This document shows positions 7,337 through 45,001 of a DNA stretch of 64,000 nucleotides, in pieces. Source of the stretch: an uncultured Synechococcus sp. (GTDB lineage Bacteria; Cyanobacteriota; Cyanobacteriia; Gloeomargaritales; Gloeomargaritaceae); NCBI GenBank assembly GCA_964481635.1, contig CAYZTU010000001.1:149669-213668 (forward strand), given 5' to 3'. The first letter of the stretch is position 1, and each line of letters begins with the position of its first letter. The notes under the pieces are model-generated. The model ran no database searches, was not told the DNA's origin, and saw nothing but the letters and a program-made list of their open reading frames with translations. Position numbers and translations under genes: made by a program.

Positions 7337-7462
7337 CTAAACACGCAATATATGATTGTGAGAATCTCTATGAATTTAGTAACAGCAAGCGGTCGCAGGG
7401 GGGCACCCCCCGTCACTGGTTCTCCAGAATCTTTGTTCGCAAATCGAATCGTATTGCTATAT
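7333..7462. repeat. MITE-like repeat copy R3a (TTATAGCTAAAC ... GCGGTCGCAGGGGGGCACCCCCC ... GTATTGCTATAT).
   Basis: Core hairpin and right TIR. Sits in tandem with copy R3b. Confidence 0.6.
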
Positions 7463-7494
7463 TGTCAAAATTGTCAAGAATTTCTATAGCAATC

Positions 7495-7606
7495 CTAGAT
7501 GAATTTAGAACAGCGGTCGCAGGGGCGCAGCCCCCGTCTTTGGTTCTATAGCTATGCCACGCAAGCTATCAGAATCTTTGTTCGGCAATCAGATAGTATT
7601 GCTATA
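7495..7606. repeat. MITE-like repeat copy R3b (TATAGCAATCC ... GCGGTCGCAGGGGCGCAGCCCCCGTC ... GTATTGCTATAG).
   Basis: Full TIRs plus the core. Contains the cacgcaagctatc sub-motif shared with copies R4 and R7. Confidence 0.7.
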
Positions 7607-7680
7607 GTACTTTTGAGCTTAGCTGTTCATTACCCTGAAAATACCAAATAAAAGCATAGTATCTAGCAGAATATTCACGC

Positions 7681-7914
7681 TTACATATACTCCTTCAAAT
7701 CCTCAAGCGGTTCATCAAAATTTTCGGCCATCCAAATCTTATCTTTCAGGATTCCAAACCCGCATCGCTTTTTCTTTTGCTGTACTGTATCTATTTGTTC
7801 TGGTTCCACTCCAGAATAGGTCTCAAGTAGATGATGGGCATAATCAAGAAGCTTATTTTTCAGTGATTCTGGCAGGTGAGAAACTGTTTCTAAAATCTCT
7901 GTTTCAACAGTCAT
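7681..7914 (-). CDS. DUF2281-like small protein (putative orphan type II antitoxin).
   Basis: The KLLDYAHHLL motif is typical of DUF2281. No cognate PIN-domain toxin ORF is adjacent, and MITE copies lie on both sides. Confidence 0.5.
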   Translation of the reverse strand: MTVETEILETVSHLPESLKNKLLDYAHHLLETYSGVEPEQIDTVQQKKKRCGFGILKDKIWMAENFDEPLEDLKEYM

Positions 7915-8007
7915 TGTTATTTACCTTTCTAGTTTTGGTGCCGCTTTTACTGTTACCAGTATAACATCTATAACATCATGTAATTATAGATCACCTCTAT
8001 TAATTCA

Positions 8008-23637: not shown

Positions 23638-23764
23638 ACTCAAATAATTATTGAAAATTCTCTTTCACCTGCGGCACTTCCCCCCTGTTAGGAAATAAGG
23701 CTATCTCACAAAATAACGAGGTATTCGTTGGATTCTCCTAAAGTAATCATGTAGTGATCTAATT

Positions 23765-23862
23765 AGAATTTTGCATGGCGGTCACATCGCACCGCCCCGC
23801 TCTGGTTCTGGCAGACCTCTTCAATTCTTATGAATCCCATGAGATTGCTATATCAACCCCAA
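23765..23862. repeat. MITE-like repeat copy R5 (GGCGGTCAC...CCGCCCCGCTCTGGTTCTGGCAGA ... GAGATTGCTATA).
   Basis: Core and right TIR. Lies immediately 3' of the doc fragment. Confidence 0.5.
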
Positions 23863-23903
23863 TCAGAGGTAGAGAACAACCTCAAACGCACCGCCAATTG
23901 CCT

Positions 23904-24438
23904 TCAATTTTCCGCTGCATTGGGATTGTTAGCTGGTGCTATATGATGCTGTAGCCACTCCACAAATGCTTCACGTCCCAGTTCACCTGATATGATCGCC
24001 AAGACTACACGCTCTTGTTCATCCACGGAGGCGTTAATTTTCAACCTATTCAGAACTATACCAATCCTACGGCATTCGTGAGAATATAAAAACGCTGAAG
24101 AACCAAAAACGGGGCGGTGCCCTGCGACCCTTTACTGTTTGAACGTAAAAATTATTCTCATGATTCAAGTGTGATTGCTATAGAAAGGTTTCCATTGCCG
24201 CATGACCTGTACGTTTATTTCCATCTACAAATGGATGATTGATGATGATTGAGAACCCTAATGTTGTTGCTTTTTCTAGCAGGTTTGGGTACAGGTCTTG
24301 TCCACCGAATGTCATTCGGGGCTGGGCGATCGCTGATTCTAATAAACCCATATCTCGGATGCCCGATGACCCACCGGATTGTTCAAGAATTTTGCGATGT
24401 AGCTCTAATACCTCAATCATTGTCAAATAGCGAATCAT
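23904..24438 (-). pseudogene. doc: Doc (death-on-curing, Fic/Doc family) toxin gene split by a MITE insertion. N-terminal 86 codons are at 24178-24438 and the C-terminal ~50 codons at 23904-24057.
   Basis: The N fragment carries the Fic motif HPFVDGNKRTGHAAMETFL. The C fragment translates to VLNRLKINASVDEQERVVLAIISGELGREAFVEWLQHH, which continues the Doc consensus. The two are separated by MITE R6, whose CTATAG end supplies an in-frame TAG. Confidence 0.8.
24058..24184. mobile_element. MITE-like repeat copy R6 inserted in doc (TIR TATACCAATCC ... GATTGCTATAG; likely TA or CTA target duplication).
   Basis: Removing the element restores the contiguous Doc reading frame ...METFL-VLNRLKINASVDE... 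Confidence 0.75.
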
Positions 24439-24632
24439 GCTAAACGCCGATATAGTTCACTATTTTTCGCCACTACATAATCGGCGGCATTAATAAAATC
24501 GTCTTTTTGTAGACTTAGCCAATCCTCTAAACTTGCTTTCAAAAGCACTTCAGTCGCAATGCCATGTACTCTTGCTAAATTCTGTAGCCTTTGGAATTGG
24601 CTGTCTGAAAGATCAATTGTGATAGAAGCCAC
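24435..24632 (-). CDS. Putative ribbon-helix-helix-type antitoxin paired with Doc.
   Basis: 65 aa. ITIDLSDSQFQRLQNLARVHGIATEVLLKASLEDWL fits an RHH beta-alpha-alpha fold. Sits upstream of doc in the same orientation with a 4-nt ATGA overlap. Confidence 0.55.
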   Translation of the reverse strand: MASITIDLSDSQFQRLQNLARVHGIATEVLLKASLEDWLSLQKDDFINAADYVVAKNSELYRRLA

Positions 24633-24846
24633 AGCGATTACTCTCCTAGTTTTTCTGCATCAAGTTTAACACTCACGTCCAAATTAATAACCTCATTGTA
24701 CTGTCCCAGACCAAAAGCCAAGCCAGCCAACAATGGTACTAACCTAGAAGGCATGAATATATTCTTCCAAAATTGGTTGGCGGAGATGTTCTTTCACGGC
24801 ATCCAGTGTACCGAGATCGACCGGACGTTGAAGTAAATTTTTTAAA

Positions 24847-24990
24847 TATAGCAATCCCGATTTGCAAACAAAGATTCTGATAGCTTGCGTGTCGCTTTGC
24901 AACATTAGCTTGCGTGTCGCTTTGCGACATTGGCTTGCGTGTCGTAGCCATAGAATCAAGGCGGGGGCAGTGCCCCCGCGACCGCTATTC
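24847..24990. repeat. MITE-like repeat copy R7, containing a 3x tandem ~23-bp sub-repeat (agcttgcgtgtcgctttgc-aca) and a GGGGGC-AGT-GCCCCC hairpin.
   Basis: Left TIR TATAGCAATCC at 24847. Core is in reverse orientation. Abuts an orphan C-terminal gene fragment at 24744-24830. Confidence 0.6.
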
Positions 24991-25096
24991 CCGAATTAAT
25001 AGAGGTTCCCTTTAACTAAAAATTAAGGGAATCTCCCTTGCTCAAATTCTGATGATATACTGATACCGGAGTAACATTTTATTAACAACTCTTCCT

Positions 25097-28000
25097 ATGA
25101 AGTTCATTTCCTCGCTGCGTCATCTGGTTTGGTTTCCCCTGAAGGCGTTAGCGGTGCTGTTTGTCTGTCAGGTGCCGGGGCTGGCATTACCCCAGGGCGG
25201 TCAAGTCACCCAGGGAGCGGCCACGATTCAACAGGTGGGGGATACCAAGCTAAATATCAATCAATCCACTGATAGAGCCGTCATCAACTGGAATAGCTTT
25301 AGCATTGCCCCCCAGGAGTGGGTGAATTTTCAACAACCCAGCAGTACATCAGCGACGTTGAACCGAGTCACTGGAGCTACACCCTCAAGTATTGCGGGCA
25401 GATTAACCGCCAATGGGCAGGTATTTTTGGTAAACCCCAATGGCATTGCGTTTTTACCCACGGCACGGGTGGATGTGGCGGGCTTAGTCGCCAGTACGTT
25501 GAATATCCAAGATACTGACTTCATGCGGGGCGTTTTGCGCTTTGAACAAATGCCAGGGAAACCCCCTGCGAGTGTAGTCAATCAAGGTTTAATTACGGTG
25601 AAAGAAGCGGGTTTTGCGGCCTTGGTTGCTCCCGCCGTGCAGAATAGTGGCATCATTTCCGCTCGCTTGGGTAAGGTCGTTCTGGCATCGGGAACGACGG
25701 TGAGCTTGGATTTCTATGGGGATGGATTATTAAGCGTGACGGTTGACCCCACGTTGGCGGGGCAAATCACGGATATTTATGGGAATAAATTAAATTCGCT
25801 GATTGACAACCAAGGCAATATCACGGCACCGGGGGGGATAGTTACCCTGACGGCTCAGGCGGCTGGTCAGATTGTAGATCATGTGATTAATGTTGGCGGG
25901 ATGATTGAGGCGAAATATGCGGAAAATCGCAATGGCGTAATTGTTCTATCCGGCGGGCAAAAGGTTACGGTTGCGGTAAATGGTGCGTTAGATGTATCGG
26001 GAATTGTATCAGGAGAGAAAGGCGGTAAAGTTACTATCACTGGGGAAAAGATTGCGCTTAATAATGGCACAACCATAGACGCTTCGGGTGATCAAGGCGG
26101 TGGGATTGTCAATATCGGGGGTAGTTTCCAGGGGAAAGGGACGCTACAGAATGCGATAGAAACGACGGTTGCCAAGGATGTCCAAATCAAAGCAGATGCC
26201 CTCACCCAGGGGAATGGGGGGGAAGTGATTGTTTGGGCGGATGGGACGACGAAATTTGAGGGTTTTGTGAGTGCCAAGGGTGGCATTATCACTGGGGATG
26301 GTGGGTTTGTCGAAATATCAGGGAAAGAAGTCTTAAATCTTGCGCCCGGTTGGTCGGGTCGGATTAACTTGAATGCCCCGGCGGGTGTGGCGGGTACTTT
26401 GCTCCTTGACCCCAATGACATTACGATTTCTGGCACAGCCGGAGCGAGTACCATTACCAATCCTGAGAATGCGACCGATTCAGGTAATCAATTATTAGAT
26501 GATGATATTGCGGCATTTTTGGGCGGTAGCAATTTAACGATTCAAACCACGGGCACAGGTGGGGTTGGCACGATCACGATCACTGGCGATGTGAATATCA
26601 CTTGGGGTACATCAAAAACCTTGACCCTCAATGCTGACCGCAATATTGTGATGAACAGTGGTGCAGTGATTCAAAATACCAATGCGGGTGCCACGCCTTT
26701 TGATGCCATAGTCTTTAATGCCAATGGTACGGGTAGCGGTAGTTTTGATGGTATTAAGCTTAACGGCAGTACCTTGGCTACTAATCGAGGCAATATTACC
26801 CTGACGGGGCAGGGCGGTGACACACTGAGCGGCAACCACGGTATCGTTCAACAGTCAGGTGCCCAAGTCAGCACGGTGGATGGCAACATTACCTATACGG
26901 GCAAGGGGGGTAGTAGCTCCGGCGGCGGTAACTTCGGGATTGATTTGAGGGATGCCACCACGAGCATTCGTACCACCGGCACTGGCAACATTACCTTAAC
27001 CGGAATAGGGGGCAGTGGCAGTGATAACAACATCGGCATTAATCAAAGCAGTAATGCCCAAGTCAGCACCATCAATGGCAATATTACCTATACGGGCACG
27101 GGGGGTAGTGGCTCCGACGGTAACTTCGGGATTTCTCTGACTGCTACGAGCATTCGCAGCACCGGCACCGGCAACATTACCTTAACCGGAACAAGCAAAG
27201 GCAATGGAGATGGTAACTCGGGCATCTACCAACAGTCCGCAGCTCAAGTCAGCACGGTGGATGGCAACATTACCTATACAGGCACGGGAGGTAATGGCAT
27301 TGACGATAACTACGGGATTGATTTGGCTGGTACGAACACAAGCATTCGCAGCACCGGCACCGGCAACATTACCTTAACCGGAAAAGGCCAAGGCACTGGA
27401 ACAAATAACTACGGCATCTATCAAATCTTTGATGCCCAAGTCAGCACGGGGGCTGGCAACATCATCTACACCGGCACCGGAGCAGGCACAGCAGATGGCA
27501 TTCGCATTGGCATTATTGGATTTGGCAGTAACGTGATTGGCTCGGCAACTACCACGGGCAATATTAGCCTAACCGCCCTGACCAATGGCCTGACACTCAA
27601 TGATGTTACGGTTCAAACGACTGGGAACCTTACCCTTTCTAGCCCAGGCAACACCAGTCAAAACAGCAGCGGTGGCCTATTCGCCAATGGTTTAGAGCTT
27701 TTAGGAACTGGTTCATTTACCCTTAGCAATGTCAACAACAACATCACCACCCTAGCGGCGGCTACCACCAATGACATTAACTACACGGATGCAAATGGGT
27801 TTGAAATTGGGACGGTGAATACCACCAATGGCGTGAATGTCAGCACAATCAAAAATCTCACCTTGAAAGCCGGTGGAGCAGTTACGCAAACCCAGAAGAT
27901 TACGGCGGGTGGGTTGGAACTCAAGGGAACAGGTAGTTACACCCTCACTAAAAACACCAACAACATCAGTATTTTAGCGGCTAATACTACGAGTAACATC

Positions 28001-31000
28001 AGCTACACGGATACTGATTCCTTCACCGTTGGCACAGTCAATGCTACGAATGGCATTACCAACGATGGAAACTCTACCCTCACAGCGTTGAATAATGGCA
28101 CGATTACCATCAACAAAAACATCACCAACAACGACACAGGCACATCAACCATCACTGTAAATGCTGACAAAAATATCGTAGTTAATTCTGGAGTAGAAAT
28201 CAAAAATACCAGCACAAGTACCACATTTAATGCCATAGTATTTAACGCCAACACCGCCGGTACAGCGACAGGAAACTTCGCAGGGATTACACTGAGTAGT
28301 AATAGTACCTTGAAAACTAATGGTGGTGGTATCAAACTCACGGGCAAGGGCGGAGATACAGGCTCTGATAACTACGGTATTTATCAACTCAATGGAGCGC
28401 AGGTAACTACCGCAAATGGCAATATCACCTATAAAGGCACGGGGGGTAATGGACTTAATTCTAATCATGGTATTAAGTTAGAAGATTCAAATACCCTCAT
28501 CACTACCGGCACGGGTAATATTGAACTGATTGGCACAGGTAATGGCACTGGGAGTACCAACTATGGTATTCAGCAAACGGATAACGCCAAAGTAACTACC
28601 ACCAGTGGCAATATCACCTACACTGGTACAAGTAATGGAACAAGTATAAACAATTTAGGTATCTTTCAGACTACTGGTGCCCAAGTCATCAGTACGGATG
28701 GCAATATCACATTCGATGGTACAGGCGGCAATGGCACAACTGGCAATGACGGCATCTTAATAACAAGTGCTAACACGCTCATCCAAACTACAGGTAAAGG
28801 TGATATCAGCCTCACGGGTACTGGCAAGGGTTCCAACGCTGTGGGAATTGTGCAACAAACATCAGCCAAAGTAGAGACAAATCAGGGCGATATTACTTAC
28901 AAGGGTACGGGGGGCAATACTGGCTCTGATAACTACGGCATTCATCAACTTGCCGGGGCGGAAGTAGTCAGTACAAGTGGCAATATCACCTACAAAGGCA
29001 CGGGGGGTAATGGCACAGAGAATAACTATGGGATTTATTTACTTAATGATGACACCAAAATCAGTTCTAACTCAGGGGCGATTAGTCTCACCGGGATAGG
29101 AAACGGGTCAGGTGATTCTAACAACGGCATTTATCAGAAAAATGGCGCACAGGTGACGACCCAAGGCGGCAACATTACTTACACCGGTACCGGGGGGAGT
29201 GGCACAGATAATAATTACGGTATTTTTCTGAACGGTGCTAACACCAAAATCACCACAACGGGCAATGGCAAAATTGAACTCACTGGCACAAGTAATGGTG
29301 CTGGCAATGATAACTATGGCATTTTTCAACAATCATCAGCGCAGGTGACCACTACTTCGGGCAGTATTAGTTACAGAGGCACGGGGGGTAATGGGACAGA
29401 TAATAACTTTGGTGTTGTTCTGAGTGATGCGAGTACAACAATCAGTTCTGATACCGGGGCAATCTCTATCACCGGCACAGGAAAAGGGTCAGGTGATTCT
29501 AACTACGGCATTTATCAGAAAAATGACGCACAGGTAACTACCGATGGCAACATCACCTACGAAGGCACGGGTGGCAAAGGCACGAATTCAAATTTTGGTA
29601 TTTTGCTGAACGGCACTGGCACCAAAATCACCACAACGGGCAATGGCAAAATTGAACTCACTGGCACAAGTAATGGTGCTGGCAATGATAACTATGGCAT
29701 TTTTCAACAATCATCAGCGCAGGTGACCACTACTTCGGGCAGTATTAGTTACAGAGGCACGGGGGGTAATGGGACAGATAATAACTTTGGTGTTGTTCTG
29801 AGTGATGCGAGTACAACAATCAGTTCTGATACCGGGGCAATCTCTATCACCGGTACAGGAAAAGGGTCAGGTGATTCTAACTACGGCATTTATCAGAAAA
29901 ATGGCGCACAGGTGACGACCCAAGGCGGCAACATTACTTACACCGGTACCGGGGGGAGTGGCACAGATAATAATTACGGTATTTTTCTGAACGGTGCTAA
30001 CACCAAAATCAGCACTACTGGTACAGGCACTATCAACCTGACTGGTACAGCTCAGGGCACAGGTACTGGCATCATAGGCATTAGGCAACAATCGTCAGCG
30101 CAGGTGAGCAGTGTAGATGGCAATATCACCTACCAAGGCACGGGTGGCAACGGCACAAACTTTAACTATGGGATTTTGCTCTTAGATACAAACACCACTA
30201 CTAGCAGTACGGGGAAAGGCACTATCAACCTGACTGGTACAGGTCAGGGCACAGGTAGCAGCAACTTTGGCATTTATCAACTCAATGGCTCAAAAGTAAC
30301 CACCACCGATGGCAATATCATCTACCAAGGCACGGGTGGCGATGGCACAAACTTTAACTATGGGATTTTGCTCTTAGATACAAACACCACTACTAGCAGT
30401 ACGGGGAAAGGCACTATCAACCTGACTGGTACAGGTCAGGGCACAGGTAGCAGCAACTTTGGCATTTATCAACTCAATGGCGCACAAGTCAGCACCGATG
30501 ATGGCAATATCACCTACCAAGGCACGGGTGGCAATGGCACAAACTTTAACTATGGGATTTATTTGCAATCTGTCAACACCAAAATCAGCACTACCGGTAC
30601 AGGGGCGATTAATCTCACAGGTACTGGTAAAGGTTCAGGTAATGATAATTACGGTATCGCCCAATTAGGTGGACCACAGGTAACTACCACCGGTGGTAAT
30701 ATCACCTACATTGGCACGGGGGGAAATGGCACAAGCTTTAACTATGGTATTTTATTGCAGGATACTATTACCACCCTTAGCACCTCTGGTACTGGCAATA
30801 TCAACCTCACCGGCACAGGAAATGGCACTGGTAATTTTAATTATGGTATCGTGCAACAGTCTGGAGCGCAGGTAAATACCACGAAGGGAAACATCAGCTA
30901 CACAGGTACAGGCAATGGCACTGGTGCTAGTAATTTTGGTATCTACCAATTCAATGGAGCGCAGGTAAATACCACCGATGGCAATATCACCTACACCGGC

Positions 31001-32131
31001 ACGGGGGGTAAAGGTGCGGATTCAATACACACCAAAACTGGCACAAACCTAATCGGCAATAACACCACCGGTCAAATTACTTTTACTTCCACAAATAATG
31101 GCATTACTTTCAATGAACTCAAAGTAGAGACTAAGGGTAATATCATCATCACTTCCCCTGGCGATGTCAATCAGAATAACAAGGGCGGACTATTTTCTAA
31201 GGGTTTGGAATTATTAGGTGATGGCAAATTTACGCTAACAAATACAAACAATAACATCGCCATATTAGCGGCCAAGACCAATAATGAAATTCGCTATACT
31301 GATACGAGTGGGTTTGATATAGGCACTGTTAATACCATCAATGGCATCAGCACTACTGGAATTGTGGTTCTCACTGGGAATGGCACCATCACCCAAACCC
31401 AACCCATTACCACCCCAGGCTTAGCCATTTTGGGTTCTGGTGGTGCCACTTTAACTAACACCAACAATCAAATTAGTACCATTGCCGCCGATACCAGTGG
31501 GAACCTGAAAGTAATTACCCAAGGGGATTTAACGGTGGGTGTAGTCAACCCCGATGGCATTGAAAATGCGGCTAGTGTATTTCTGCAAAGCCTCACGGGA
31601 GATATTATTCTTGATGAATCTATCAATGTCACTGGTGGCATTACCCTAGTTGCAGGTAGAGATTTCATCAACAAGGTGGGTGCAGGTGCCTTAAATCTTG
31701 AAGATGGAAGATTTTTAGTTTATGCCACTAGCCCTGAGCCCACGGGAAATTTCCAAGGCTTCTCCGTCCTGAAAGGTTCTCAGCAATTTAATACCACATT
31801 CCCCCAACCCGCTCTGTTCGCAGGCAGTGGCTTTTTGTATAAAGGTTTAGCACCTATTATTCCTGGATTGCCAAGTAGTTCAGTATTCACAGAACCCGTT
31901 ACATTTGTGCTTAATTTCAATGACCGGCAGTGGCGGGATTTAACGGATTTGGGTGAAGCAGTGTTCTTCCCCGAAGCCCTATTGTGCGTGAATGTCCCCG
32001 TGAATCAAACGACGGGTTCACCGCCTTTGACTGACCCCATCATTCTGAGAAGTGAAAATCTACCTGATCTCAATATCCAATGGCAAACAGGTGAACTGCC
32101 TGAGTGTTCTTCCCCAATCGTTGCCGAATAG
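25097..32131 (+). CDS. Two-partner-secretion exoprotein (TpsA; filamentous-haemagglutinin-like). N-terminal signal peptide and TPS domain, followed by about 1400 aa of Gly/Thr/Asn-rich ~38-aa repeats.
   Basis: Conserved TPS motif NPNGIAF. Repeat unit resembles GNITYTGTGGNGTDNNYGI. Near-perfect internal DNA duplications at 29252-29520 = 29622-29890, 29140-29250 = 29890-30000, and 30130-30290 = 30320-30480. Confidence 0.85.
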   Translation: MKFISSLRHLVWFPLKALAVLFVCQVPGLALPQGGQVTQGAATIQQVGDTKLNINQSTDRAVINWNSFSIAPQEWVNFQQPSSTSATLNRVTGATPSSIAGRLTANGQVFLVNPNGIAFLPTARVDVAGLVASTLNIQDTDFMRGVLRFEQMPGKPPASVVNQGLITVKEAGFAALVAPAVQNSGIISARLGKVVLASGTTVSLDFYGDGLLSVTVDPTLAGQITDIYGNKLNSLIDNQGNITAPGGIVTLTAQAAGQIVDHVINVGGMIEAKYAENRNGVIVLSGGQKVTVAVNGALDVSGIVSGEKGGKVTITGEKIALNNGTTIDASGDQGGGIVNIGGSFQGKGTLQNAIETTVAKDVQIKADALTQGNGGEVIVWADGTTKFEGFVSAKGGIITGDGGFVEISGKEVLNLAPGWSGRINLNAPAGVAGTLLLDPNDITISGTAGASTITNPENATDSGNQLLDDDIAAFLGGSNLTIQTTGTGGVGTITITGDVNITWGTSKTLTLNADRNIVMNSGAVIQNTNAGATPFDAIVFNANGTGSGSFDGIKLNGSTLATNRGNITLTGQGGDTLSGNHGIVQQSGAQVSTVDGNITYTGKGGSSSGGGNFGIDLRDATTSIRTTGTGNITLTGIGGSGSDNNIGINQSSNAQVSTINGNITYTGTGGSGSDGNFGISLTATSIRSTGTGNITLTGTSKGNGDGNSGIYQQSAAQVSTVDGNITYTGTGGNGIDDNYGIDLAGTNTSIRSTGTGNITLTGKGQGTGTNNYGIYQIFDAQVSTGAGNIIYTGTGAGTADGIRIGIIGFGSNVIGSATTTGNISLTALTNGLTLNDVTVQTTGNLTLSSPGNTSQNSSGGLFANGLELLGTGSFTLSNVNNNITTLAAATTNDINYTDANGFEIGTVNTTNGVNVSTIKNLTLKAGGAVTQTQKITAGGLELKGTGSYTLTKNTNNISILAANTTSNISYTDTDSFTVGTVNATNGITNDGNSTLTALNNGTITINKNITNNDTGTSTITVNADKNIVVNSGVEIKNTSTSTTFNAIVFNANTAGTATGNFAGITLSSNSTLKTNGGGIKLTGKGGDTGSDNYGIYQLNGAQVTTANGNITYKGTGGNGLNSNHGIKLEDSNTLITTGTGNIELIGTGNGTGSTNYGIQQTDNAKVTTTSGNITYTGTSNGTSINNLGIFQTTGAQVISTDGNITFDGTGGNGTTGNDGILITSANTLIQTTGKGDISLTGTGKGSNAVGIVQQTSAKVETNQGDITYKGTGGNTGSDNYGIHQLAGAEVVSTSGNITYKGTGGNGTENNYGIYLLNDDTKISSNSGAISLTGIGNGSGDSNNGIYQKNGAQVTTQGGNITYTGTGGSGTDNNYGIFLNGANTKITTTGNGKIELTGTSNGAGNDNYGIFQQSSAQVTTTSGSISYRGTGGNGTDNNFGVVLSDASTTISSDTGAISITGTGKGSGDSNYGIYQKNDAQVTTDGNITYEGTGGKGTNSNFGILLNGTGTKITTTGNGKIELTGTSNGAGNDNYGIFQQSSAQVTTTSGSISYRGTGGNGTDNNFGVVLSDASTTISSDTGAISITGTGKGSGDSNYGIYQKNGAQVTTQGGNITYTGTGGSGTDNNYGIFLNGANTKISTTGTGTINLTGTAQGTGTGIIGIRQQSSAQVSSVDGNITYQGTGGNGTNFNYGILLLDTNTTTSSTGKGTINLTGTGQGTGSSNFGIYQLNGSKVTTTDGNIIYQGTGGDGTNFNYGILLLDTNTTTSSTGKGTINLTGTGQGTGSSNFGIYQLNGAQVSTDDGNITYQGTGGNGTNFNYGIYLQSVNTKISTTGTGAINLTGTGKGSGNDNYGIAQLGGPQVTTTGGNITYIGTGGNGTSFNYGILLQDTITTLSTSGTGNINLTGTGNGTGNFNYGIVQQSGAQVNTTKGNISYTGTGNGTGASNFGIYQFNGAQVNTTDGNITYTGTGGKGADSIHTKTGTNLIGNNTTGQITFTSTNNGITFNELKVETKGNIIITSPGDVNQNNKGGLFSKGLELLGDGKFTLTNTNNNIAILAAKTNNEIRYTDTSGFDIGTVNTINGISTTGIVVLTGNGTITQTQPITTPGLAILGSGGATLTNTNNQISTIAADTSGNLKVITQGDLTVGVVNPDGIENAASVFLQSLTGDIILDESINVTGGITLVAGRDFINKVGAGALNLEDGRFLVYATSPEPTGNFQGFSVLKGSQQFNTTFPQPALFAGSGFLYKGLAPIIPGLPSSSVFTEPVTFVLNFNDRQWRDLTDLGEAVFFPEALLCVNVPVNQTTGSPPLTDPIILRSENLPDLNIQWQTGELPECSSPIVAE
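26800..31050 (+). repeat. Intragenic tandem repeat array (~114-bp units) inside tpsA, with recent near-perfect duplications of 110-270 bp.
   Basis: Identical 74-aa shadow ORFs at 29108-29332 and 29867-30091. Long identical DNA stretches are visible directly. Confidence 0.8.
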
Positions 32132-32270
32132 TCGTATGTTTCTGGGAAACTGTATTAGATGCCCAGATTCTGAAGAACCCCAGAGACTACTTGCTATTTT
32201 CTTGGGCAAATTTGTTGCATACATCAATCTCTTCGAGATAATCTAACAAAGTGAGGAGTATGGAGTTAAT

Positions 32271-33959
32271 TTGATGAAAATCCTGTTCTGCGGCTTGATT
32301 GTCTTGGGAGTTATGGAAATTCAGGCTAATGCTTTAGCCCAGGTCGGACCCATTGACCCTAGCCGGATTCAACAGGAGTTGCAACCCCCTCAGGTGCCCA
32401 CCCGCCCCGAAGAAATTACCATTCCCCGTCGGGATGAACCCACCGCCCCCCCCGGCGCAGAAAATGTGCGCTTCATTTTGAAAACGTTGGACATTCAAGG
32501 GGTAACCGCCTTCACCCCGGAGCAACTACAACTTCTTTACCAAGCCAACATCAATACAGAAATTTCCCTCGCAGAATTGTATATTATTGCCGACCAATTA
32601 AATAATCTTTATCGTCAGGGAGGCTACATTTTAACCCGGGTCTTAGTGCCGGAACAAACCATCCAACAGGGTGTGGCTCGCATCGAGGTGGTAGAAGGCT
32701 TTGTGGAGGCGGTAAAGTTCGTCGGTACGACCCCGGCGCAGGAGAACAGGTTGCGGGGTTTTGGGGAGTGGATTCAACGCTCTCGTCCCCTCAAATCCTC
32801 TGCCCTGGAACGGAATCTATTATTGATGAATGATTTGGCGGGTTATGAGGTGCGGGCGAGGCTTGACCCTGGCCAGGAAGTCGGGGGCAGTGTGTTAACT
32901 TTAGAACTAATCTATGACCCATTTGACCCATTTTTTGAAGTGAATAATTGGGCACCCGATTCCGTGGGGCCAGTGCGATTGCAAGGGGGGGTATTTTTGA
33001 ATTCCTTGGGCAATCAGGGGGAACGGTTTAGTTTGAGTGCCGCCACCACACCTTTTGATTTTGAAGAATTAGCTAGTGGCCGGTTTGACTTCCAAATTCC
33101 CATCGGTTTTGACGGGGTGACCTTGGCCACCAGTGCCAGCTACACGGGCACCCAACCGGGGGCGGAAGTTGCGCCATTTCTGGTGACGGGGGAAAGTTTT
33201 AACTTTAATCTCGGCTTGAGTTATCCCCTGATTCGTTCCCGGCAATTAAATCTATCCTTAAATGGCTTATTTGATTTAACCAATAGCACGGTTGCCACCC
33301 GTTTTTTGGGGTTTCCCATTGTTCTCAGCCAAGACCGGATTCGTTCGTTGCGGGTGGGGGCGACCGTGGACAATATCAATGCCGTGGGGTTTACTTCCGC
33401 TTCGATTTTGCTCTCCCAGGGGTTGAGCGGTTTGGGGGCACGGTTGGAGGGCAGTGAAGGGGCACCCCTCTCCCGGGCGAATGGTCAGGCAACGGGGTTC
33501 AAGGTGAACTTGAATTTTGCCCAGTTGTTCACCCTACCCCAGCAATTTAATCTTTTGCTAACGGGAGCGGGGCAGGTGGCCAGTACCTCCTTGCTGGTAT
33601 CGGAGCAGTTTGGCTTGGGTGGACCCAGTTTTGGATCGGCCTACAACCCTTCCCAATTGTTGGGGGATGATGGCTACGGGTTGCGCCTAGAATTGCAACG
33701 GCCAGTGAATTATCGCGCCGGGACGACGCCGATGGTCAGCCAGCCCTATGCCTTTGTGGATTATGGACAGGTGTTTTTGAAACAACCCACGGCGGCGGAG
33801 CCGGGGAATCGGGAGTTGGCTTCCGCAGGGTTAGGACTGCGCCAATTTATTAGTAATTATCTGCAAATGCGTTTGGAATTAGCCTTTCCTTTGAGTAAAT
33901 TTGTGCCCCAGTTTGAGCAAACCCCCCGATTATTATTTAGCGTTCAGGGAGTGTTTTAG
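32271..33959 (+). CDS. TpsB outer-membrane transporter (ShlB/FhaC/HecB family haemolysin activation/secretion protein with POTRA domains).
   Basis: Signal peptide, a POTRA-like N-terminal region, and a C-terminal beta-barrel ending in a terminal F. Positioned immediately downstream of tpsA. Confidence 0.8.
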   Translation: MMKILFCGLIVLGVMEIQANALAQVGPIDPSRIQQELQPPQVPTRPEEITIPRRDEPTAPPGAENVRFILKTLDIQGVTAFTPEQLQLLYQANINTEISLAELYIIADQLNNLYRQGGYILTRVLVPEQTIQQGVARIEVVEGFVEAVKFVGTTPAQENRLRGFGEWIQRSRPLKSSALERNLLLMNDLAGYEVRARLDPGQEVGGSVLTLELIYDPFDPFFEVNNWAPDSVGPVRLQGGVFLNSLGNQGERFSLSAATTPFDFEELASGRFDFQIPIGFDGVTLATSASYTGTQPGAEVAPFLVTGESFNFNLGLSYPLIRSRQLNLSLNGLFDLTNSTVATRFLGFPIVLSQDRIRSLRVGATVDNINAVGFTSASILLSQGLSGLGARLEGSEGAPLSRANGQATGFKVNLNFAQLFTLPQQFNLLLTGAGQVASTSLLVSEQFGLGGPSFGSAYNPSQLLGDDGYGLRLELQRPVNYRAGTTPMVSQPYAFVDYGQVFLKQPTAAEPGNRELASAGLGLRQFISNYLQMRLELAFPLSKFVPQFEQTPRLLFSVQGVF

Positions 33960-33961
33960 GA

Positions 33962-34080
33962 TACCGCTATTGATTAGCTACACCACACCAGCCAACAAAA
34001 TAAGCGGTCGCAGGGGCATAACCACCGTCTCTGGTTCTCGTTAACTTTGATGATTCTCGTAAATCATCTGTGATTGCTAG
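33962..34080. repeat. MITE-like repeat copy R8 (AAGCGGTCGCAGGGGCATAACCACCGTCTCTGGTTCT ... GTGATTGCTAG).
   Basis: Core and right TIR. Sits directly next to the left end of the IS605-family element. Confidence 0.55.
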
Positions 34081-34094
34081 TTTAAGTATTTTTT

Positions 34095-35697
34095 ATAGAA
34101 TATGAGCGGAAAACCCGGCTGCTTGCGGCGGGGATGGATAGCGAATCAACAAACAGCGCGCGTAGCGCATCCTTACAAAATAAATGCTATAATGTAAGGT
34201 ATGACAGAACGTGCTTTCAAGTTCCGCTTCTACCCAACTCCTGAGCAAGAAACCTTGCTTAGAAGGACGCTTGGCTGTGTAAGGCTGGTGTATAACCGTG
34301 CCCTCGCAGCCAGAACAGAGGCTTGGTATCAGCGTCAAGAGCGAATTGGGTTTGACATACTCCACCGCCCTAAAGGGCAGGGATTCTAAACCTCACGATT
34401 TAGATTTCTGCTTCTTTCTCTTTCGAGCCTTTCGCAACTGCCTCTACTCTCAAGGAGTTTTGGTCTTATGTTCGCTCCACAGACTTCAAGCTATTCCCCG
34501 CTTTCCCGGATGCCCCTCGGTATGGGGTTGGAAAAACTTGTTTTTTGTTTTCCCGATGTAATTCTAACAAAGTTTTTGTAAAGCCGCCCTGAAAGGGCGG
34601 GGTTTTAGACCCAGTTTTTTGATAACCAATCGTCCGCAATGCTGACCGAGTGGAAGCGGGATGAGGGGCTGAGTTTTCTGAGCGAGGTAAGCTCTGTCCC
34701 TCTCCAACAAGGATTGAGGCATCTGCAAACCGCATTCAGCAACTTCTGGGCAGGCAGAGCGCAATATCCCAACTTCAAAAAGAAGCGGAACGGGGGTTCT
34801 GCTGAGTTCACCAAGTCGGCATTCAAGTTTAGAGATGGTCAGGTGTTCCTGGCTAAATGCTCTGAAGCCTTGCCGATTCGTTGGTCTAGGCAGCTTCCTA
34901 AAGGTGCTGAACCCTCTACCATCACAGTCAAGCTGGAGCCATCGGGTCGCTGGACTGTTTCGCTGTTGGTGGATGATCTGACTATTCAACCGCTACCAAA
35001 AACTGACAAAGCGATTGGGATTGATGCCGGAATTACCAGCCTGGTTACAACCAGTGACGGTGAGAAGGTGTCCAACCCTAAACACTTTGCCAAGCTCTAT
35101 CAGAAGTTGAAGAAGGCTCAGAAACGGCTAAGCCGCAAGCAAAAAGGCTCTCGCAATCGGGATAAGGCACGGCGCAAAGTTGCCCGTGTCCATGCCGAGA
35201 TTAGAGACTCTAGACACGATTTCCTGCACAAGTTGACAACGCAATTGGTGAGAGAAAACCAAACCATCGTTGCTGAGTCGCTGGCAGTGAAAAACATGGT
35301 CAAGAATCGGAAGTTGGCAAAGTCGATTTCTGATGCTGGATGGAGCGAAATGAACCGCCAACTGGCCTACAAAGCTGAGTGGTATGGTCGTAACTTTGTC
35401 CAGCTTGACCGATGGTTCCCTGGTTCTAAAACTTGCTCGAAGTGTGGGCATAAAGTTGATTTGCTTCCTCTAAATGTTCGTGAGTGGGATTGTCCTAAAT
35501 GCAATGCTCACCATGACCGGGATGTGAATGCTGCTATAAACCACTTAGCTGCTGGACAGGCAGTGTTAGTCTGTGGAGCGACCGTAAGACCTGAAGAGAG
35601 CAAATCTCGGAAGGCTGGTGCTATGAAACAGAAACCTAAGCCGTGAGTCTTAGGAATCCTCGCTGCTTGCGGCGAGGAGGATGTCAATCGCTGCCAA
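34095..35697 (+). mobile_element. IS200/IS605-family TnpB-only insertion element (IS1341-like). Subterminal hairpins share a GCTGCTTGCGGCG motif, at 34113-34134 on the left end and 35657-35678 on the right end.
   Basis: Imperfect palindromes at both ends flank a tnpB gene. No tnpA is present. The right end abuts the stop codon of the methyltransferase gene. Confidence 0.7.
34201..35646 (+). pseudogene. tnpB: tnpB (RNA-guided endonuclease TnpB/OrfB) interrupted after codon ~58 by a roughly 240-bp insertion (34376-34613) that carries in-frame stops.
   Basis: N fragment begins MTERAFKFRFYPTPEQETLLRRTLGCVRLVYN. C fragment has SEVSSVPLQQ, a RuvC-like D/E/D region and a CxxC...CxxC zinc finger. 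Both fragments are in the same frame. Confidence 0.75.
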
Positions 35698-40701: not shown

Positions 40702-40755
40702 AGGGTTTAGGCTTACGTTAGGTTTCTTGGTTGTCTGCCCTAGTTGGAGAATTTT

Positions 40756-40850
40756 TATAGCAAAATCATCCAATTAGCGAACAGAAATTGTGAAGAACAG
40801 AAGCGGTATCCCTACAACCTTTGTTCCAAAATCAAGAGGGATTGCTATGG
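40756..40850. repeat. MITE-like repeat copy R9 (TATAGCAAAATC ... GAAGAACAGAAGCGGTATCCC ... GGGATTGCTATGG).
   Basis: TIRs and a partial core. Flanks the 3' end of the coiled-coil gene. Confidence 0.55.
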
Positions 40851-40859
40851 TATCAGCCA

Positions 40860-42608
40860 TCAAGAGTTTCTACGCCTGGGACTAATCAAATGTAAAACAT
40901 AGATAATCAAACCAGCAAAGCCCAACTCTTGATACAAAAAAGTGCGTAGTTGTTTGGATGTACGCTGTCTGCGAAATTCCCGTAGATAACTTTCAAATTG
41001 ACGGATAGCAATCATCTCCTGCTTACATACTTCTAATTGATTGCGTAGAAATCTTGACTCATCTAAAAGTTCGTTAGTTTTCTCTATAATATTATCGGTG
41101 ATTCCCAGTTCATTGAGTTTTTTGGGTATATTCCGAATTGGCTCTAACTCGGAGACAATTTTTTGAACTTGGTCTAAGAGTTTTTGAGTATTGGCTTCGG
41201 TTTGTTGGATGAAATTTTTAACTTGTTCTATTTTCTCCTGTTTAGTGTTTAGCTCAGTAATTGTCTGCTCGGAGAACGCTTTAGCTTGTTGTATCTCTTC
41301 AAGAATGCGTTGCATATCCTGTAAAACGTTCTCTCTGATGCCGAGTTGGTCTAATCTTTGAGGTAGATTCTTGAAATGTTCTAATTCTGAAGTGATTTTC
41401 TGTAGTTCTTGTAATTTCAGTTGAGTATCGGCTTCGGTTTGTTGGATGAAATTCTTGTTTTGCTCTATCCTTTCTTGATTGATTTGCAAATTAGTTAAGG
41501 TCTGTTCGGAAAATGCTTTAGCTTGTTGTACTTCTTCAAGAATACGTTGCATATCCTGTAAAACATTCTCCCTGATACCGAGTTGATCCAACCTTTGGGG
41601 TAAATTCTTGAAATGTTCTAATTCTGCAATGATTTTCTGTAGTTCTTGTAATTTCAGTTGAGTATCAGCTTCGGTTTGTTGGATGAAATTCTTGTTTTGC
41701 TCTATCCTTTCTTGATTGGTTTGCAGATCAGCAATTGTCTGCTCGGAGAACGCTTTAGCTTGTTGTATCTCTTCAAGAATGCGTTGCATATCCTGTAAAA
41801 CGTTCTCTCTGATACCGAGTTGGTCTAACCTTTGGGGTAGATTCTTAAAATATTCTAGTTCTATAATAATTCTCTGTAGCTCTTGCAATTTTAATTGAAT
41901 ATCAGCTTCGGTTTGTTGGATGAAATTCTTGTTTTGCTCTATCCTTTCGTGATTGGTTTGTAGCTCGGTAATTGTCTGCTCAGAAAATGTTTTAGCTTGT
42001 CGCACTTCTCCAAGAATACTTTGCATATCTTGTAAAACATTCTCTCTCATACCAAGTTGGTCTAACCTTTGGGATAGATTCTTAAAATATTCTAGTTCTA
42101 TAATAATTCTCTGTAGCTCTTGCAATTTTAATTGAATATCAGCTTCGGTTTGTTGGATGAAATTTTTGTTTTGCTCTATCTTTTCTTGATTGGTTTGTTG
42201 TTCAGCTAATGTCTGCTCGGAAAATGTTTTAGCTTGCCGTACCTCATCAAGAATGCGTTGTATATCCTGCAAAACATTCTCTTTGATGCCAGATTGGTCT
42301 AGGATGCCAAGTTGATCCAATCTTTGGGGTAAATTCTTGAAAGACTCTAATTCCGATAGAGTTTCGTCTAAGTCTGTTTTTGTTTTTTGTAATAGCTGTT
42401 TATTCAGTTCTAAATCTTGTGAAACAATTTCAATTCGTCGAATAAGTTCACTGACTTCATCAATTTGTTGTGCTTTTTGCAAAACTTCATCAATTTGTTG
42501 TGCTTTTTGCAAGAATTTACTCGCTTTTTCAAGAGCTTCATTAACTTTCTGACAGAGTAATTCTAAGTCCCTTGCAACTTCCAAATCAGTTTTGCTGTTG
42601 TAATCCAT
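40860..42608 (-). CDS. Tail-anchored coiled-coil protein built from about six near-identical 79-aa tandem repeats, with a single C-terminal TM helix.
   Basis: Repeat unit FKNLPQRLDQLGIRENVLQDMQRILEEIQQAKAFSEQTI.ELQTNQERIEQNKNFIQQTEADTQLKLQELQKI..ELE. C-terminal LYQELGFAGLIIYVLHLISPRRR. AT-rich. No match to any family I recognise. Confidence 0.7.
   Translation of the reverse strand: MDYNSKTDLEVARDLELLCQKVNEALEKASKFLQKAQQIDEVLQKAQQIDEVSELIRRIEIVSQDLELNKQLLQKTKTDLDETLSELESFKNLPQRLDQLGILDQSGIKENVLQDIQRILDEVRQAKTFSEQTLAEQQTNQEKIEQNKNFIQQTEADIQLKLQELQRIIIELEYFKNLSQRLDQLGMRENVLQDMQSILGEVRQAKTFSEQTITELQTNHERIEQNKNFIQQTEADIQLKLQELQRIIIELEYFKNLPQRLDQLGIRENVLQDMQRILEEIQQAKAFSEQTIADLQTNQERIEQNKNFIQQTEADTQLKLQELQKIIAELEHFKNLPQRLDQLGIRENVLQDMQRILEEVQQAKAFSEQTLTNLQINQERIEQNKNFIQQTEADTQLKLQELQKITSELEHFKNLPQRLDQLGIRENVLQDMQRILEEIQQAKAFSEQTITELNTKQEKIEQVKNFIQQTEANTQKLLDQVQKIVSELEPIRNIPKKLNELGITDNIIEKTNELLDESRFLRNQLEVCKQEMIAIRQFESYLREFRRQRTSKQLRTFLYQELGFAGLIIYVLHLISPRRRNS
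41050..42300 (-). repeat. About 237-bp tandem repeats (~6 units, above 90% identity) encoding the coiled-coil modules.
   Basis: Near-identical shadow ORFs at 41716-41898 and 41953-42135. The periodicity is visible in the DNA. Confidence 0.8.
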
Positions 42609-42617
42609 AATTAGACC

Positions 42618-44948
42618 TCACATTAATTTGATCCTATCAACAGCTAGTTTACACAAAATAGATACTAGAGGGGAGTCACTGTCTATGGGAAATTCATCAG
42701 CGAAGGGATATTGCTGCTCCTGCAGATGAGACGACCTCACTCTTGCTCTGATACGAGCGGCTTCGTAAGGTAACCTCTTTGCTTCCATTTCGTCAGCAAT
42801 AGCCAAAAGTATCCGATGATACTGTTTGCGGTTTAATGCTCGTATCCTAGATGCTTCGGCAACCGCATCCCAGGAACGGTCTAAGGCTCTCAGCATCAAA
42901 CATCGCAATCCCACTCGGTCTTCAATATCTGTCACTTCCTCCATTTCTCTAAATTGATTTTCCAAGAAATTTGTATCATGCTTTTTGAGTTTTGAAATAA
43001 GCTCTGATTCAACCCCATATATTTTTTCATCACTAGCTTTGATCAAATTTAGAACCGAGTAGGTATCAAAGTATAAATCTGGCACTTGATTGCGTATCCT
43101 ATTTAATACCCCATCAACATTTTCAAATGCACTTTCAGCATTAGATGATTGAGAAATCCAAGTTGCCAAACCATCGAGATGATCATCAGAGGCATCAAAA
43201 AATTCACAGTTCTGTAGCTTTTTTCGACCAATCTTTTCGATTTCAACCGATGTCATAACTACTAAAAGCCGTTGTCTCGGTCGAGTAGCCGCCGTGTACC
43301 AATTATTTGCCTCGACCAGTGATAGCCCTTTCTGTTCCTGGGCAAGAGATAATACAACGCATCCATCAAATTCTCGCCCCTTTGCACCTGCAACGCTCAA
43401 ATAATTGATACTTGGTAGTTGATTTGTCCTGTCTGGGATTTCTTGATCTTTAATATAAATAATGTAGGTTTGATTAGCTAGTCTATTTAACAAAAATCGC
43501 TCTGAATCTTTTGTTGATTTATTTATTTTATCGCTCAGTTTACTCAAAAATTTTTCTACATCATCAGGTGCAGAGACTTCTAATATCTTGATTGCCTCTC
43601 CCACTTCAAAAGCACTCTTAGGATCAGAAGGGGGCGGCGGATGAGCAACGCTATTAATTTTAGCAATTTGGTTTGAAATTTCATTACATATATTGGCAAA
43701 TTCAAGAATTTTCCGGGTGTTTCGATAATTATACTTTAGAGAATAACGCCGATTGAGATGTAGATCGCCCCAGTCAAAATCTACAGGTTGAATGCGTTGA
43801 TTCATGTCTCCCAACAACCAAAGTAAGGTAAAGTGTTGATGTTCTTTCTGCCATCGGCTTAGCATCTTATTACTAATCAATTTAAGTTCTTTGAGGAGAT
43901 AATCCTGCGCTTCATCTATGATAAGTACCGTTGAGTTTCTTGGCGTTATCGTTTCTGGAGTGAGTTTTTGACTTAGTTGTTCTAGAGCATCCACTCGCAG
44001 GATTTTGTTATTTAGATTTTCTTGGAATCTTGTTTTTCTGATCCCGCTAAGCTGTTCTATTTTTTCACGATTTTGTTTATAAAGAATCCGTTGTTGATAG
44101 TTTTTGACACTCTCATCAATTGCGTAAATAAAACTTGTGTATAGCTTTACGTCATTTTCATGTAGCTCGGCTAGATCAGTGATATGAATCCTTTTAGCTT
44201 CTTGTTGTAAGGCAATTTTTTGTTCTTCAATAGTAGCAATTTGAGAAAAGAGTTCCGGGTCTAGGCTTTCGATCCACTGCTCTAAAGTGCCAACAAAAAA
44301 GCTTTCGTTGTCATATTCTTTTTTGATCCGCTTAATCTGTTCATACTCTTGAATATCCCCACAAAGATTTTTAGGTAATATTAAAATGATATTAGAATAA
44401 TACTCATATAAATTGCAGGCCAACAATGCGGCACACACTGTTTTTCCTGTGCCTGGAGAACTTTGAATTAATAAGCTATCAATTTTTTCATGCGATGAAG
44501 AAACATTTAAGCTGGAAAGTAGTTGTTTTTGTTCCTCAGTTAAGCATGGTGAGTAGAGATAGCCGCCATAGAAAAATTGACGTAAAGAACTGGTTTGTGG
44601 AAGTAATTCATACGTGGGTAAATCTTCAACCTTTGTATCCTCAATGCCTAAATCAGCCCAGCTTAACTCCTCTGGCTCCATCTCTTCAATCGCTTGCTCA
44701 ACAGAGCTAAACCTACCTCTATAAACATCTTTCCGATCACCTACTTTGACAACTAAAATAGCATTTTCATCAATTCTTGTCCAAATAATCCTATAATTAC
44801 CTGTACGTGTACGCAATAACTTACTACAACCACTTAGTGCTTTATGTTCTCCAAAATGCCCTTCCCGAAAACGAGTTACTGTGTCTATTACATCAGGATA
44901 CCTCTGTATTCCTAAGATGGCAAAGCGGGTGAACCTGACCGTGTACAT
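42618..44948 (-). CDS. Fusion protein: N-terminal RelE/ParE-fold toxin-like domain (~80 aa), a central SF1 UvrD-like helicase/ATPase core, and a C-terminal ~170-aa unknown domain.
   Basis: N-terminus LSGCSKLLRTRTGNYRIIWTRIDENAILVVKVGDRKDVY matches the RelE/ParE C-terminal signature. Helicase motifs are present: Walker A SSPGTGKTV, motif II VLIIDEAQDY, motif III LLGDMNQRI, motif IV YNYRNT, motif V GAKGREFDGCVV, and motif VI AATRPRQRLLVV. AT-rich. Confidence 0.7.
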   Translation of the reverse strand: MYTVRFTRFAILGIQRYPDVIDTVTRFREGHFGEHKALSGCSKLLRTRTGNYRIIWTRIDENAILVVKVGDRKDVYRGRFSSVEQAIEEMEPEELSWADLGIEDTKVEDLPTYELLPQTSSLRQFFYGGYLYSPCLTEEQKQLLSSLNVSSSHEKIDSLLIQSSPGTGKTVCAALLACNLYEYYSNIILILPKNLCGDIQEYEQIKRIKKEYDNESFFVGTLEQWIESLDPELFSQIATIEEQKIALQQEAKRIHITDLAELHENDVKLYTSFIYAIDESVKNYQQRILYKQNREKIEQLSGIRKTRFQENLNNKILRVDALEQLSQKLTPETITPRNSTVLIIDEAQDYLLKELKLISNKMLSRWQKEHQHFTLLWLLGDMNQRIQPVDFDWGDLHLNRRYSLKYNYRNTRKILEFANICNEISNQIAKINSVAHPPPPSDPKSAFEVGEAIKILEVSAPDDVEKFLSKLSDKINKSTKDSERFLLNRLANQTYIIYIKDQEIPDRTNQLPSINYLSVAGAKGREFDGCVVLSLAQEQKGLSLVEANNWYTAATRPRQRLLVVMTSVEIEKIGRKKLQNCEFFDASDDHLDGLATWISQSSNAESAFENVDGVLNRIRNQVPDLYFDTYSVLNLIKASDEKIYGVESELISKLKKHDTNFLENQFREMEEVTDIEDRVGLRCLMLRALDRSWDAVAEASRIRALNRKQYHRILLAIADEMEAKRLPYEAARIRARVRSSHLQEQQYPFADEFPIDSDSPLVSILCKLAVDRIKLM

Positions 44949-45001
44949 AGGTTACATAACTTAAAATTTGGATGCCCTCATATTTTTACAATACAACTTT
45001 T

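Follow-up and report, generated by a model that had tools for sequence, protein, structure and literature searches.

What is the role of a cyanobacterial protein whose sequence consists largely of tandem copies of one 79-residue unit? The question is raised by a 64,000-nucleotide stretch of DNA (hereafter the window) from an uncultured Synechococcus sp. of the family Gloeomargaritaceae (assembly GCA_964481635.1, contig CAYZTU010000001.1, positions 149,669 to 213,668 of the forward strand), in which the gene at 40860..42608 carries an array of 237-bp repeats. A preliminary description of this DNA, made from the letters alone, likened the product to a length-defined coiled-coil spacer or sensor, with repeats that had expanded very recently or were still evolving in concert. 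The decisive context, absent from that description, is the gene next to it: the repeat protein is the obligate partner of a fusion between a RelE-like toxin domain and a superfamily 1 (SF1) helicase, and sequence comparison places it in the Slr7083 family of cyanobacterial coiled-coil-rich proteins. Taken together, the data are probably best explained by a variable-length membrane tether or regulator of the RelE-helicase effector, and not by a fixed ruler. The structural and family assignment is made with high confidence, the functional one with only moderate confidence. The two genes and their junction are as follows:

42618..44948, minus strand: 776-aa fusion of a RelE-like domain, an SF1 (UvrD-like) helicase and an all-helical C-terminal domain (open reading frame, Pfam, AlphaFold2 model)
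44715..44948, minus strand: RelE-like toxin domain, aa 1-78 (profile matches to RelE structures)
42606..42620, minus strand: gene junction, in which the helicase TGA (42618-42620) overlaps a GAGG Shine-Dalgarno sequence (42616-42619) and is followed by the partner ATG (42606-42608)
40860..42608, minus strand: 582-aa repeat protein, assigned by sequence to the Slr7083-family coiled-coil partners (open reading frame, hhalign, phmmer)

In nearly all of 76 genome loci, the partner gene directly follows the helicase gene on the same strand, and only three helicase loci (L027, L043, and L044) are without it. The two frames overlap by 4 bp or are separated by a few bases in many homologous loci. In the window, direct reading of the sequence places the GAGG motif 8 nt ahead of the repeat gene ATG, and the repeat gene is translationally coupled to the upstream helicase gene. 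No conserved third gene was found beside the pair among 135 neighbouring proteins from 24 loci. About 100 helicase homologues were found, nearly all of them cyanobacterial, the closest of the JGI-derived ones being 46% identical. The only non-cyanobacterial helicase loci, at ~27-28% identity, come from a Gemmatales metagenome-assembled genome (MAG; L068) and a Tanganyikabacteria MAG (L070); in both, the downstream gene carries the N-terminal motif of the partner family described below, which suggests occasional transfer outside cyanobacteria.

The nature of the larger protein is supported by several lines of evidence. A profile built from its first 90 residues matches the solved RelE structures 1wmi (2.7e-6), 3g5o (1.2e-5), and 9g12 (5e-5), as well as E. 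coli RelE (4v7k, 4e-4). Residues R46, R48, R53, R72, and Y76 align to K52, K54, R61, R81, and Y87 of the E. coli toxin, and R46, R53, R72, and Y76 are invariant across the RelE-helicase family. An AlphaFold2 (AF2) model built from a 30-sequence alignment (predicted local distance difference test, pLDDT, 85; predicted template modelling score, pTM, 0.82) resolves the protein into a beta/alpha domain of RelE type, a pair of RecA-like domains, and a C-terminal domain made up of helices alone. Pfam gives weak matches to ResIII and UvrD_C, the hits in Pfam, NCBIfam, and PADLOC being of a generic P-loop or UvrD_C kind, and a Foldseek search with the model returned generic SF1 helicases only, at 10-16% identity, including UvrD, PcrA, Rep, Ighmbp2, Upf1, Sen1, HelD, SLFN11, and nsp13. 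A PADLOC match to mad8 (2.5e-7) is confined to the Walker A-B region and was not taken as membership. No helicase fusions are listed in a survey of RelE/ParE multidomain toxins.

The partner itself has a conserved N-terminal amphipathic helix, a segmented alpha-helical stalk, and a hydrophobic C-terminal segment predicted to be an anchor. In the window, these parts are arranged as follows:

42474..42596, minus strand: conserved N-terminal helix, aa 5-45, with the motif D8-x6-L15-x2-L18-x3-I22; putative docking element
42454..42513, minus strand: 30-bp tandem duplication, two copies 97-100% identical, encoding LQKAQQIDEV twice
42087..42341, minus strand: unit U1, aa 90-174, 85 aa, with an 18-nt LDQLGI/LDQSGI duplication
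41850..42086, minus strand: unit U2, aa 175-253
41613..41849, minus strand: unit U3, aa 254-332
41376..41612, minus strand: unit U4, aa 333-411
41139..41375, minus strand: unit U5, aa 412-490, the most divergent of the units
40902..41138, minus strand: degenerate terminal unit, aa 491-569, which retains an 'IPKKLNELGI' break motif and continues into the anchor
40884..40940, minus strand: C-terminal hydrophobic segment, aa 557-575, with a ELGFAGLIIYVLHLI core and then PRRRNS; predicted tail anchor

The N-terminal helix links the window protein to a wider family. In the window subfamily (alignment A3), D8, L15, L18, and I22 show little or no variation, and they line up with residues D9, L16, L19, and I23 in the Slr7083 subfamily (alignment A5); the looser motif (T/S)D-x6-L-x2-L-x3-I is present in 63 of 63 compiled partners. 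Alignment of the two subfamily profiles with hhalign gives a probability of 96.4% (E 1.1e-9) from residue 1 of both, and a helical coiled-coil-rich middle with (L/I)G(G/I) breaks is common to the two. Searched exhaustively with phmmer, 1.84 billion representatives yielded 36 clusters for the subfamily of the window protein. Word-indexed searches, with the repeat protein alone or with the partner alignment, returned only the protein itself and a partial fragment from Gloeomargarita lithophora; since coiled-coil words swamp the candidates, this near-empty result reflects a limit of the method and is not evidence of an orphan. An exact look-up of the contigs encoding the repeat protein gave no record, and a cluster look-up yielded no names. 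No Pfam, NCBIfam, or PADLOC model covers the pair or the partner family, and the partner gives only sub-threshold coiled-coil noise in these collections (SMC, Rad50, LmuB, Ppl). An SMC/Rad50/LmuB-type ATPase was considered and rejected, the LmuB match standing at 4e-4, those to Rad50 and SMC at 13-21 bits against cut-offs of 567-1000, and the partner having no Walker motif.

A low-confidence single-sequence AF2 model of the repeat protein is all-alpha, with a helix of ~66-79 residues per unit that is broken at each 'NLP..LDQLGIREN'; Pro and Gly are almost confined to the break motifs. One stalk module consists of one long helix and an 'LP..L..LG(I/G)' break. Hydrophobic residues recur with a 3.5-residue periodicity (z = 5.6, higher than in any of 1000 shuffled sequences); core positions are moderately occupied, and the register is not constant. 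The modular coiled-coil protein of the preliminary description is borne out by the all-alpha model and the heptad signal. Its C-terminal transmembrane anchor holds in part: a hydrophobic segment is indeed found at aa 557-575, is conserved in the subfamily, is covered by an AF2 helix (551-574), and has positive charges on both sides; its Kyte-Doolittle hydrophobicity is borderline (19-mer mean 1.61, 17-mer mean 1.55). Tail scores of at least 1.6 were obtained for 41 of the 63 partners, with other subfamilies clearly hydrophobic (2.0-3.05). Among partners without such a tail, L059, L060, and L071 as well as L063, L064, L073, and L088 have conserved ends, either Trp-rich ('APWWWPSNWWWKTK') or of the form 'KCDRP.W..SN', which might be alternative membrane-interface anchors. 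The partner of a 57%-identical helicase (P0108, L083 2555-3598) has three ~93-aa units and no hydrophobic tail, and its C-terminus could be frameshifted or otherwise altered.

The family includes one member that has been studied experimentally. Helicase homologues that are 30% identical to that of the window occur on cyanobacterial plasmids, including pSYSA of Synechocystis PCC 6803, where, in the order slr7080-slr7084, slr7081 and slr7082 correspond to the helicase and slr7083 to its downstream partner. Slr7083 resembles the window protein in lying directly downstream of a homologous RelE-helicase gene, in its in-register N-terminal motif, and in its coiled-coil-rich middle with LGG/LGI breaks. 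It differs in its size (377 aa), in having three non-repetitive modules and very low identity beyond the N-terminal motif, in ending with 'KCDRPVW' and not with a hydrophobic tail, in being plasmid-borne, the cassette lying between two type III CRISPR loci, and in having a split cognate helicase. The last point can be read from the sequence: slr7081 and slr7082 are one RelE-helicase gene interrupted by an in-frame stop (L088 7036-7038; pSYSA NC_005230.1 ~77590), the context being 'KLLV*PDL' in pSYSA and 'KLLVYPDR' in S. salina, where the stop is absent. Because of this nonsense codon, the published Slr7083 knockouts were made in a truncated-helicase background. Slr7083 was described as a coiled-coil-rich protein that binds to itself, assembles into nets in vitro, and is found at the cell periphery (Springstein et al., 2020, PMC7002697), and was also listed as a type III-B CRISPR-associated cluster, C3a168, of unknown function (Shah et al., 2019, PMC6546367), while Slr7081 and Slr7082 were reported only as uncharacterised P-loop proteins (PMC10243305). 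In the searchable literature that mentions slr7081, slr7082, or slr7083, Slr7083 is nowhere connected with the helicase, and the gene pair is nowhere described.

How was the stalk of the window protein built? The 237-bp array is real and far beyond chance: the open reading frame and Tandem Repeats Finder, which at 41184-42301 finds 4.7 copies of a 237-bp period with 87% matches (score 1532), agree on the repetitive gene first noticed. It comprises five clear in-frame units, U1-U5, of which U2-U5 are 79 aa each and U1 is 85 aa because of the 18-nt local duplication, plus a degenerate sixth, so that the in-frame 79-aa module of the earlier description is confirmed, and its count of about six comes down to five clear units. 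The sixth unit shares 17-25% amino acid and 65-69% DNA identity with the others, and is orthologous to the terminal segment of the G. lithophora protein (76% DNA identity). The units are also less alike than had been judged by eye. Pairwise DNA identity among U1-U5 is 76-91%, and U3/U4 alone reaches 90.7%, instead of all units exceeding 90%; 87 of the 237 sites vary, and the longest exact inter-unit match is 81 nt. Likewise, the plus-strand shadow reading frames thought to be identical (41716-41898 and 41953-42135) are not so: they agree at 51 of 60 aa and 163 of 183 nt. A scan for promoters and terminators gave nothing exceeding shuffle expectation.

These differences bear on the age of the array. 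Synonymous divergence (dS, NG86 method) lies at 0.42-0.75 for pairs within U1-U4 and rises to as much as 2.2 in comparisons with U5, and orthologous genes of the window organism and G. lithophora have a dS of 0.59-0.83. As inter-unit divergence matches divergence between species, the duplications date to roughly the time at which the window lineage and G. lithophora separated, and the very recent expansion first proposed does not hold. The ratio of nonsynonymous to synonymous divergence (dN/dS, NG86) between units is 0.06-0.17, which indicates purifying selection on the unit protein sequence. Identity between units is also mosaic: the last 57 nt of U1 and U2 are 100% identical and their first halves 78-82%, while the first halves of U3 and U5 are 93-98% identical and their second halves 60-75%, a pattern that points to recombination or gene conversion between units. 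G. lithophora carries the same 237-bp unit, its visible copies matching at 89-94%, and units are closer within the window genome (76-91%) than between it and G. lithophora (65-74%), which in turn implies partial concerted evolution or turnover. The concerted evolution suggested earlier therefore survives as partial homogenisation, visible in the mosaic tracts and the higher within-genome identity, among units that are only 76-91% alike. One stalk module has thus been tandemly duplicated here to five copies and a degenerate terminal copy, and the units have been retained by purifying selection and in part homogenised via recombination or gene conversion. The 30-bp LQKAQQIDEV duplication, which lies inside the otherwise conserved N-terminal helix, is missing from all aligned homologues and for this reason looks truly recent.

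The two genes also stand out from their surroundings in base composition:

40702..45001, no strand assigned: two-gene low-GC island of 4.3 kb, ~36-38% GC, with 22-32% GC at third codon positions (GC3) (composition profile)

The flanks of the island have 58-61% GC and a GC3 of 64-74%. It lies between murG and a gene for a DUF3685 response regulator, downstream of rpoB-rpoC1-rpoC2, and its counterparts in G. lithophora and in a third lineage (L081) likewise adjoin murG (L079 8001-12073; L081 6001-9187). The core proteins mark the window organism as a close relative of G. lithophora, with amino acid identities of 97% for RpoC1, 95% for RpoC2, and 83% for MurG; within the cassette, the helicases share 70% and the partner termini ~60% identity, against 83-97% for the flanking genes. 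L081 is more distant from the window organism on every gene. This pattern fits vertical inheritance, fast evolution, and a base composition without amelioration. The GC3 of the cassette is ~22-32%, yet its divergence tracks species relationships in the three lineages (dS 0.6-0.8), with no sign of amelioration. Elsewhere in the window, 26849-31002 is an unrelated second tandem-repeat coding region of 44-50% GC, with periods of 93, 186/192, and 378/384 bp and 74-88% matches, whose Gly/Thr-rich repeats are of the 'GTG..GS.N.GI...GAQV.T.DGNITY' type. Positions 2000-8000 and 23000-35000 have a lower GC content (39-52%) than the 55-61% background and may be further islands.

Several known systems resemble the pair in part. 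One that matches in architecture is ArmD of the anti-phage system ARMADA type II of E. coli NCTC 12900, in which a RelE-like N-terminal domain is joined to a GajB/UvrD-like helicase; this system has been validated as anti-phage, and its RelE-UvrD fusion is essential (preprint, PMC12458937). The likeness between ArmD and the window helicase is one of domain architecture. The partners of ArmD are a BrxHII-like helicase (ArmA), a PglX-like methyltransferase (ArmB), and a YprA helicase (ArmC), and no genes of these types were found, either in the window, where the neighbours are murG and the DUF3685 regulator, or among the 135 neighbours in 24 loci; conversely, ARMADA is without a coiled-coil membrane partner. 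The cyanobacterial pair shares with the type II toxin-antitoxin systems RelBE and HigBA a RelE fold with equivalents of the catalytic residues and a bicistronic, translationally coupled organisation, with the toxin first as in higBA. Unlike in these systems, the toxin domain of the window is fused to a helicase of ~700 aa, and the place of a small, DNA-binding antitoxin is taken by a coiled-coil partner of 140-652 aa, usually with a hydrophobic tail. The only membrane-associated RelE-family toxin reported so far, ToxM, has its transmembrane segment on the toxin itself (PMC11980606). As to Gabija, no GajA OLD-family nuclease was found, and the PADLOC match of the helicase to GajB covers 48 aa with an E-value of 0.0037. 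Two further systems offer analogies for the partner. Streptococcal M proteins have in-frame tandem units in a coiled-coil stalk anchored at one end, and their unit number changes by recombination; they are secreted, wall-anchored surface antigens under immune selection, unlike the repeat protein, which is without a signal peptide and whose bulk is predicted to be cytoplasmic. In the Zorya defence system, ZorA has a long membrane-anchored helical tail and works with a cytoplasmic helicase/nuclease effector. This too is an analogy only, as the cyanobacterial pair is without a MotA/ZorA-like multi-pass domain, ZorB, ZorC, or ZorD, and has no Pfam or PADLOC match to them.

Other explanations of the repeat protein have to be weighed against a variable tether. 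The array could be an assembly artefact, with units collapsed, expanded, or chimeric, in which case neither copy number nor mosaic structure would be biological. Short-read Logan contigs of the same locus (L077, L080) do terminate inside the array, and both G. lithophora assemblies have runs of N there: 1090 N at L079 10753-11842 (CP017675.1), exactly in the orthologous array of the 'complete' D10 genome, and 96 N with a frame mismatch in the second assembly (L078 11058-11153). The 641-bp difference between these two assemblies was accordingly rejected as strain copy-number variation and ascribed to the assembly gaps. However, the window array contains no N and an intact 582-aa frame, the 87 variable sites and the 81-nt limit on exact matches make it resolvable by long k-mers or long reads, an independent Logan contig is an exact match to the first 158 aa of the protein, and G. 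lithophora has the 237-bp unit as well; an artefact is thus very improbable. It is also improbable, if less extremely so, that selection acts on the number of 79-aa units so as to fix the distance between membrane and partner. Such a ruler would agree with purifying selection on the units and with the conservation of the anchor and the N-terminal motif at opposite ends. It would also agree with the orthologous ORF of G. lithophora D10, which spans 583 aa against 582 aa, provided that the 1090-N gap it includes is sized correctly; GenBank labels this gene (GlitD10_2291) 'partial', and its ~five units are only an estimate because they are taken from the gap size, every short-read assembly breaking inside the array. 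The family at large argues against it. The 63 compiled partners range from 140 to 652 aa (median 260), and arrays have arisen independently in the same middle region, with units of 79 aa x5 in the window, 25 aa x4-5 (L004, P0127), 100 aa x2.4-4 (L051, P0123), ~93 aa x2-3 (L081, L083), ~62 aa x5 (L024), 11-58 aa in the Microcoleus group, and 14 aa x3 (L057). Close relatives differ by whole units: P0110 (181 aa) and P0107 (274 aa) are one 93-aa unit apart, and P0127 (187 aa) and the L004 partner (212 aa) one 25-aa unit apart, with termini 95-100% identical in both cases. Other close pairs differ by 70-251 aa, and in the sister lineage L081 the partner has 274 aa and a close allele 181 aa. Some of these inter-allele differences could be repeats collapsed in metagenome assemblies. 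The variation by whole units anticipated in the preliminary description is thus seen at the family level, its length-defined protein is contradicted by the same data, and the plasticity across the family points to a labile stalk and not a conserved ruler.

A third alternative, rather unlikely, follows the published view of Slr7083 and regards the partner as a structural, cytoskeleton-like protein, which would form a sub-membrane lattice for motility, shape, or thylakoid partitioning, the helicase being unrelated or only regulatory. Slr7083 indeed forms filament-like nets in vitro and localises peripherally, its knockout in PCC-M has motility and cytokinesis defects, and it binds HmpF in a two-hybrid assay (PMC7002697). 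However, the strict coupling to the RelE-helicase gene at ~70 loci, with overlapping or abutting frames, is hard to reconcile with such a role, as are the small and patchy family (36 clusters among 1.84 billion representatives), the location of the gene pair in a fast-evolving low-GC island, and a hypervariable length that is unusual in a housekeeping scaffold; slr7083 is moreover only weakly transcribed (PMC7002697).

For the variable tether or regulator, we propose the following scheme. The N-terminal helix would bind the RelE-helicase, either tethering it or restraining it in an antitoxin-like manner, and the C-terminus would fix the complex to the membrane. The stalk, by associating with itself, might set reach, valency, or a sub-membrane lattice. 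The effector may be a ribosome-dependent RNase domain, which the helicase powers or directs to its target, and the pair as a whole would form a self-contained conflict module, anti-phage or toxin-antitoxin-like. Features that would favour a role in conflict are the RelE fold with its catalytic equivalents, the ArmD-like architecture, the fast-evolving low-GC island, and the CRISPR-flanked position on pSYSA. A more specific proposal is possible but doubtful: the pair may be an immune or addiction module of two genes, largely cyanobacterial and so far unrecognised, in which a usually membrane-anchored stalk holds or gates a ribosome-targeting RNase-helicase effector and in which the gain and loss of modules is adaptive for reach, valency, or recognition.

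A number of observations weigh against this scheme. Binding between the partner and the helicase is something that we infer, the AF2 prediction for the partner is of low confidence (pLDDT 57), and the anchor is borderline in the window subfamily (1.55-1.61), with about one third of all partners having no hydrophobic tail. No antitoxin or DNA-binding domain (RelB, HigA, HTH, or RHH) was detected in the partner with Pfam and NCBIfam. The genomic setting is not that of a typical defence gene either, as the 135 proteins encoded around 24 loci show no defence-gene enrichment and are of the housekeeping kind, no copies were found in the phage genomes or IMG/VR viral contigs searched, and the cassette looks vertically inherited in Gloeomargarita. 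The low inter-unit dN/dS means that the stalk is more than a passive spacer. On the experimental side, loss of slr7083 from a motile strain alters its motility and cytokinesis (PMC7002697), and knockouts of slr7080-slr7084 left CRISPR3 interference unchanged (PMC6546367).

What, then, does this locus tell us about the family? An apparently orphan repeat protein is now linked to a family with one experimentally studied member, Slr7083, and this family is paired with a RelE-helicase fusion. Arrays of this kind break short-read assemblies, and explain the gap in the 'complete' genome of G. lithophora D10. With at least seven independent module expansions in one region, and alleles that differ by whole units, the family amounts to a natural experiment in stalk length, so that whether this length matters is directly testable. 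As the RelE-UvrD fusion is essential in ARMADA II, the cyanobacterial pair may be a minimal, membrane-linked relative of that system, which can be tested against cyanophage. If the pair does act in conflict, Slr7083, published as a cytoskeletal protein, would become one half of a conflict system.

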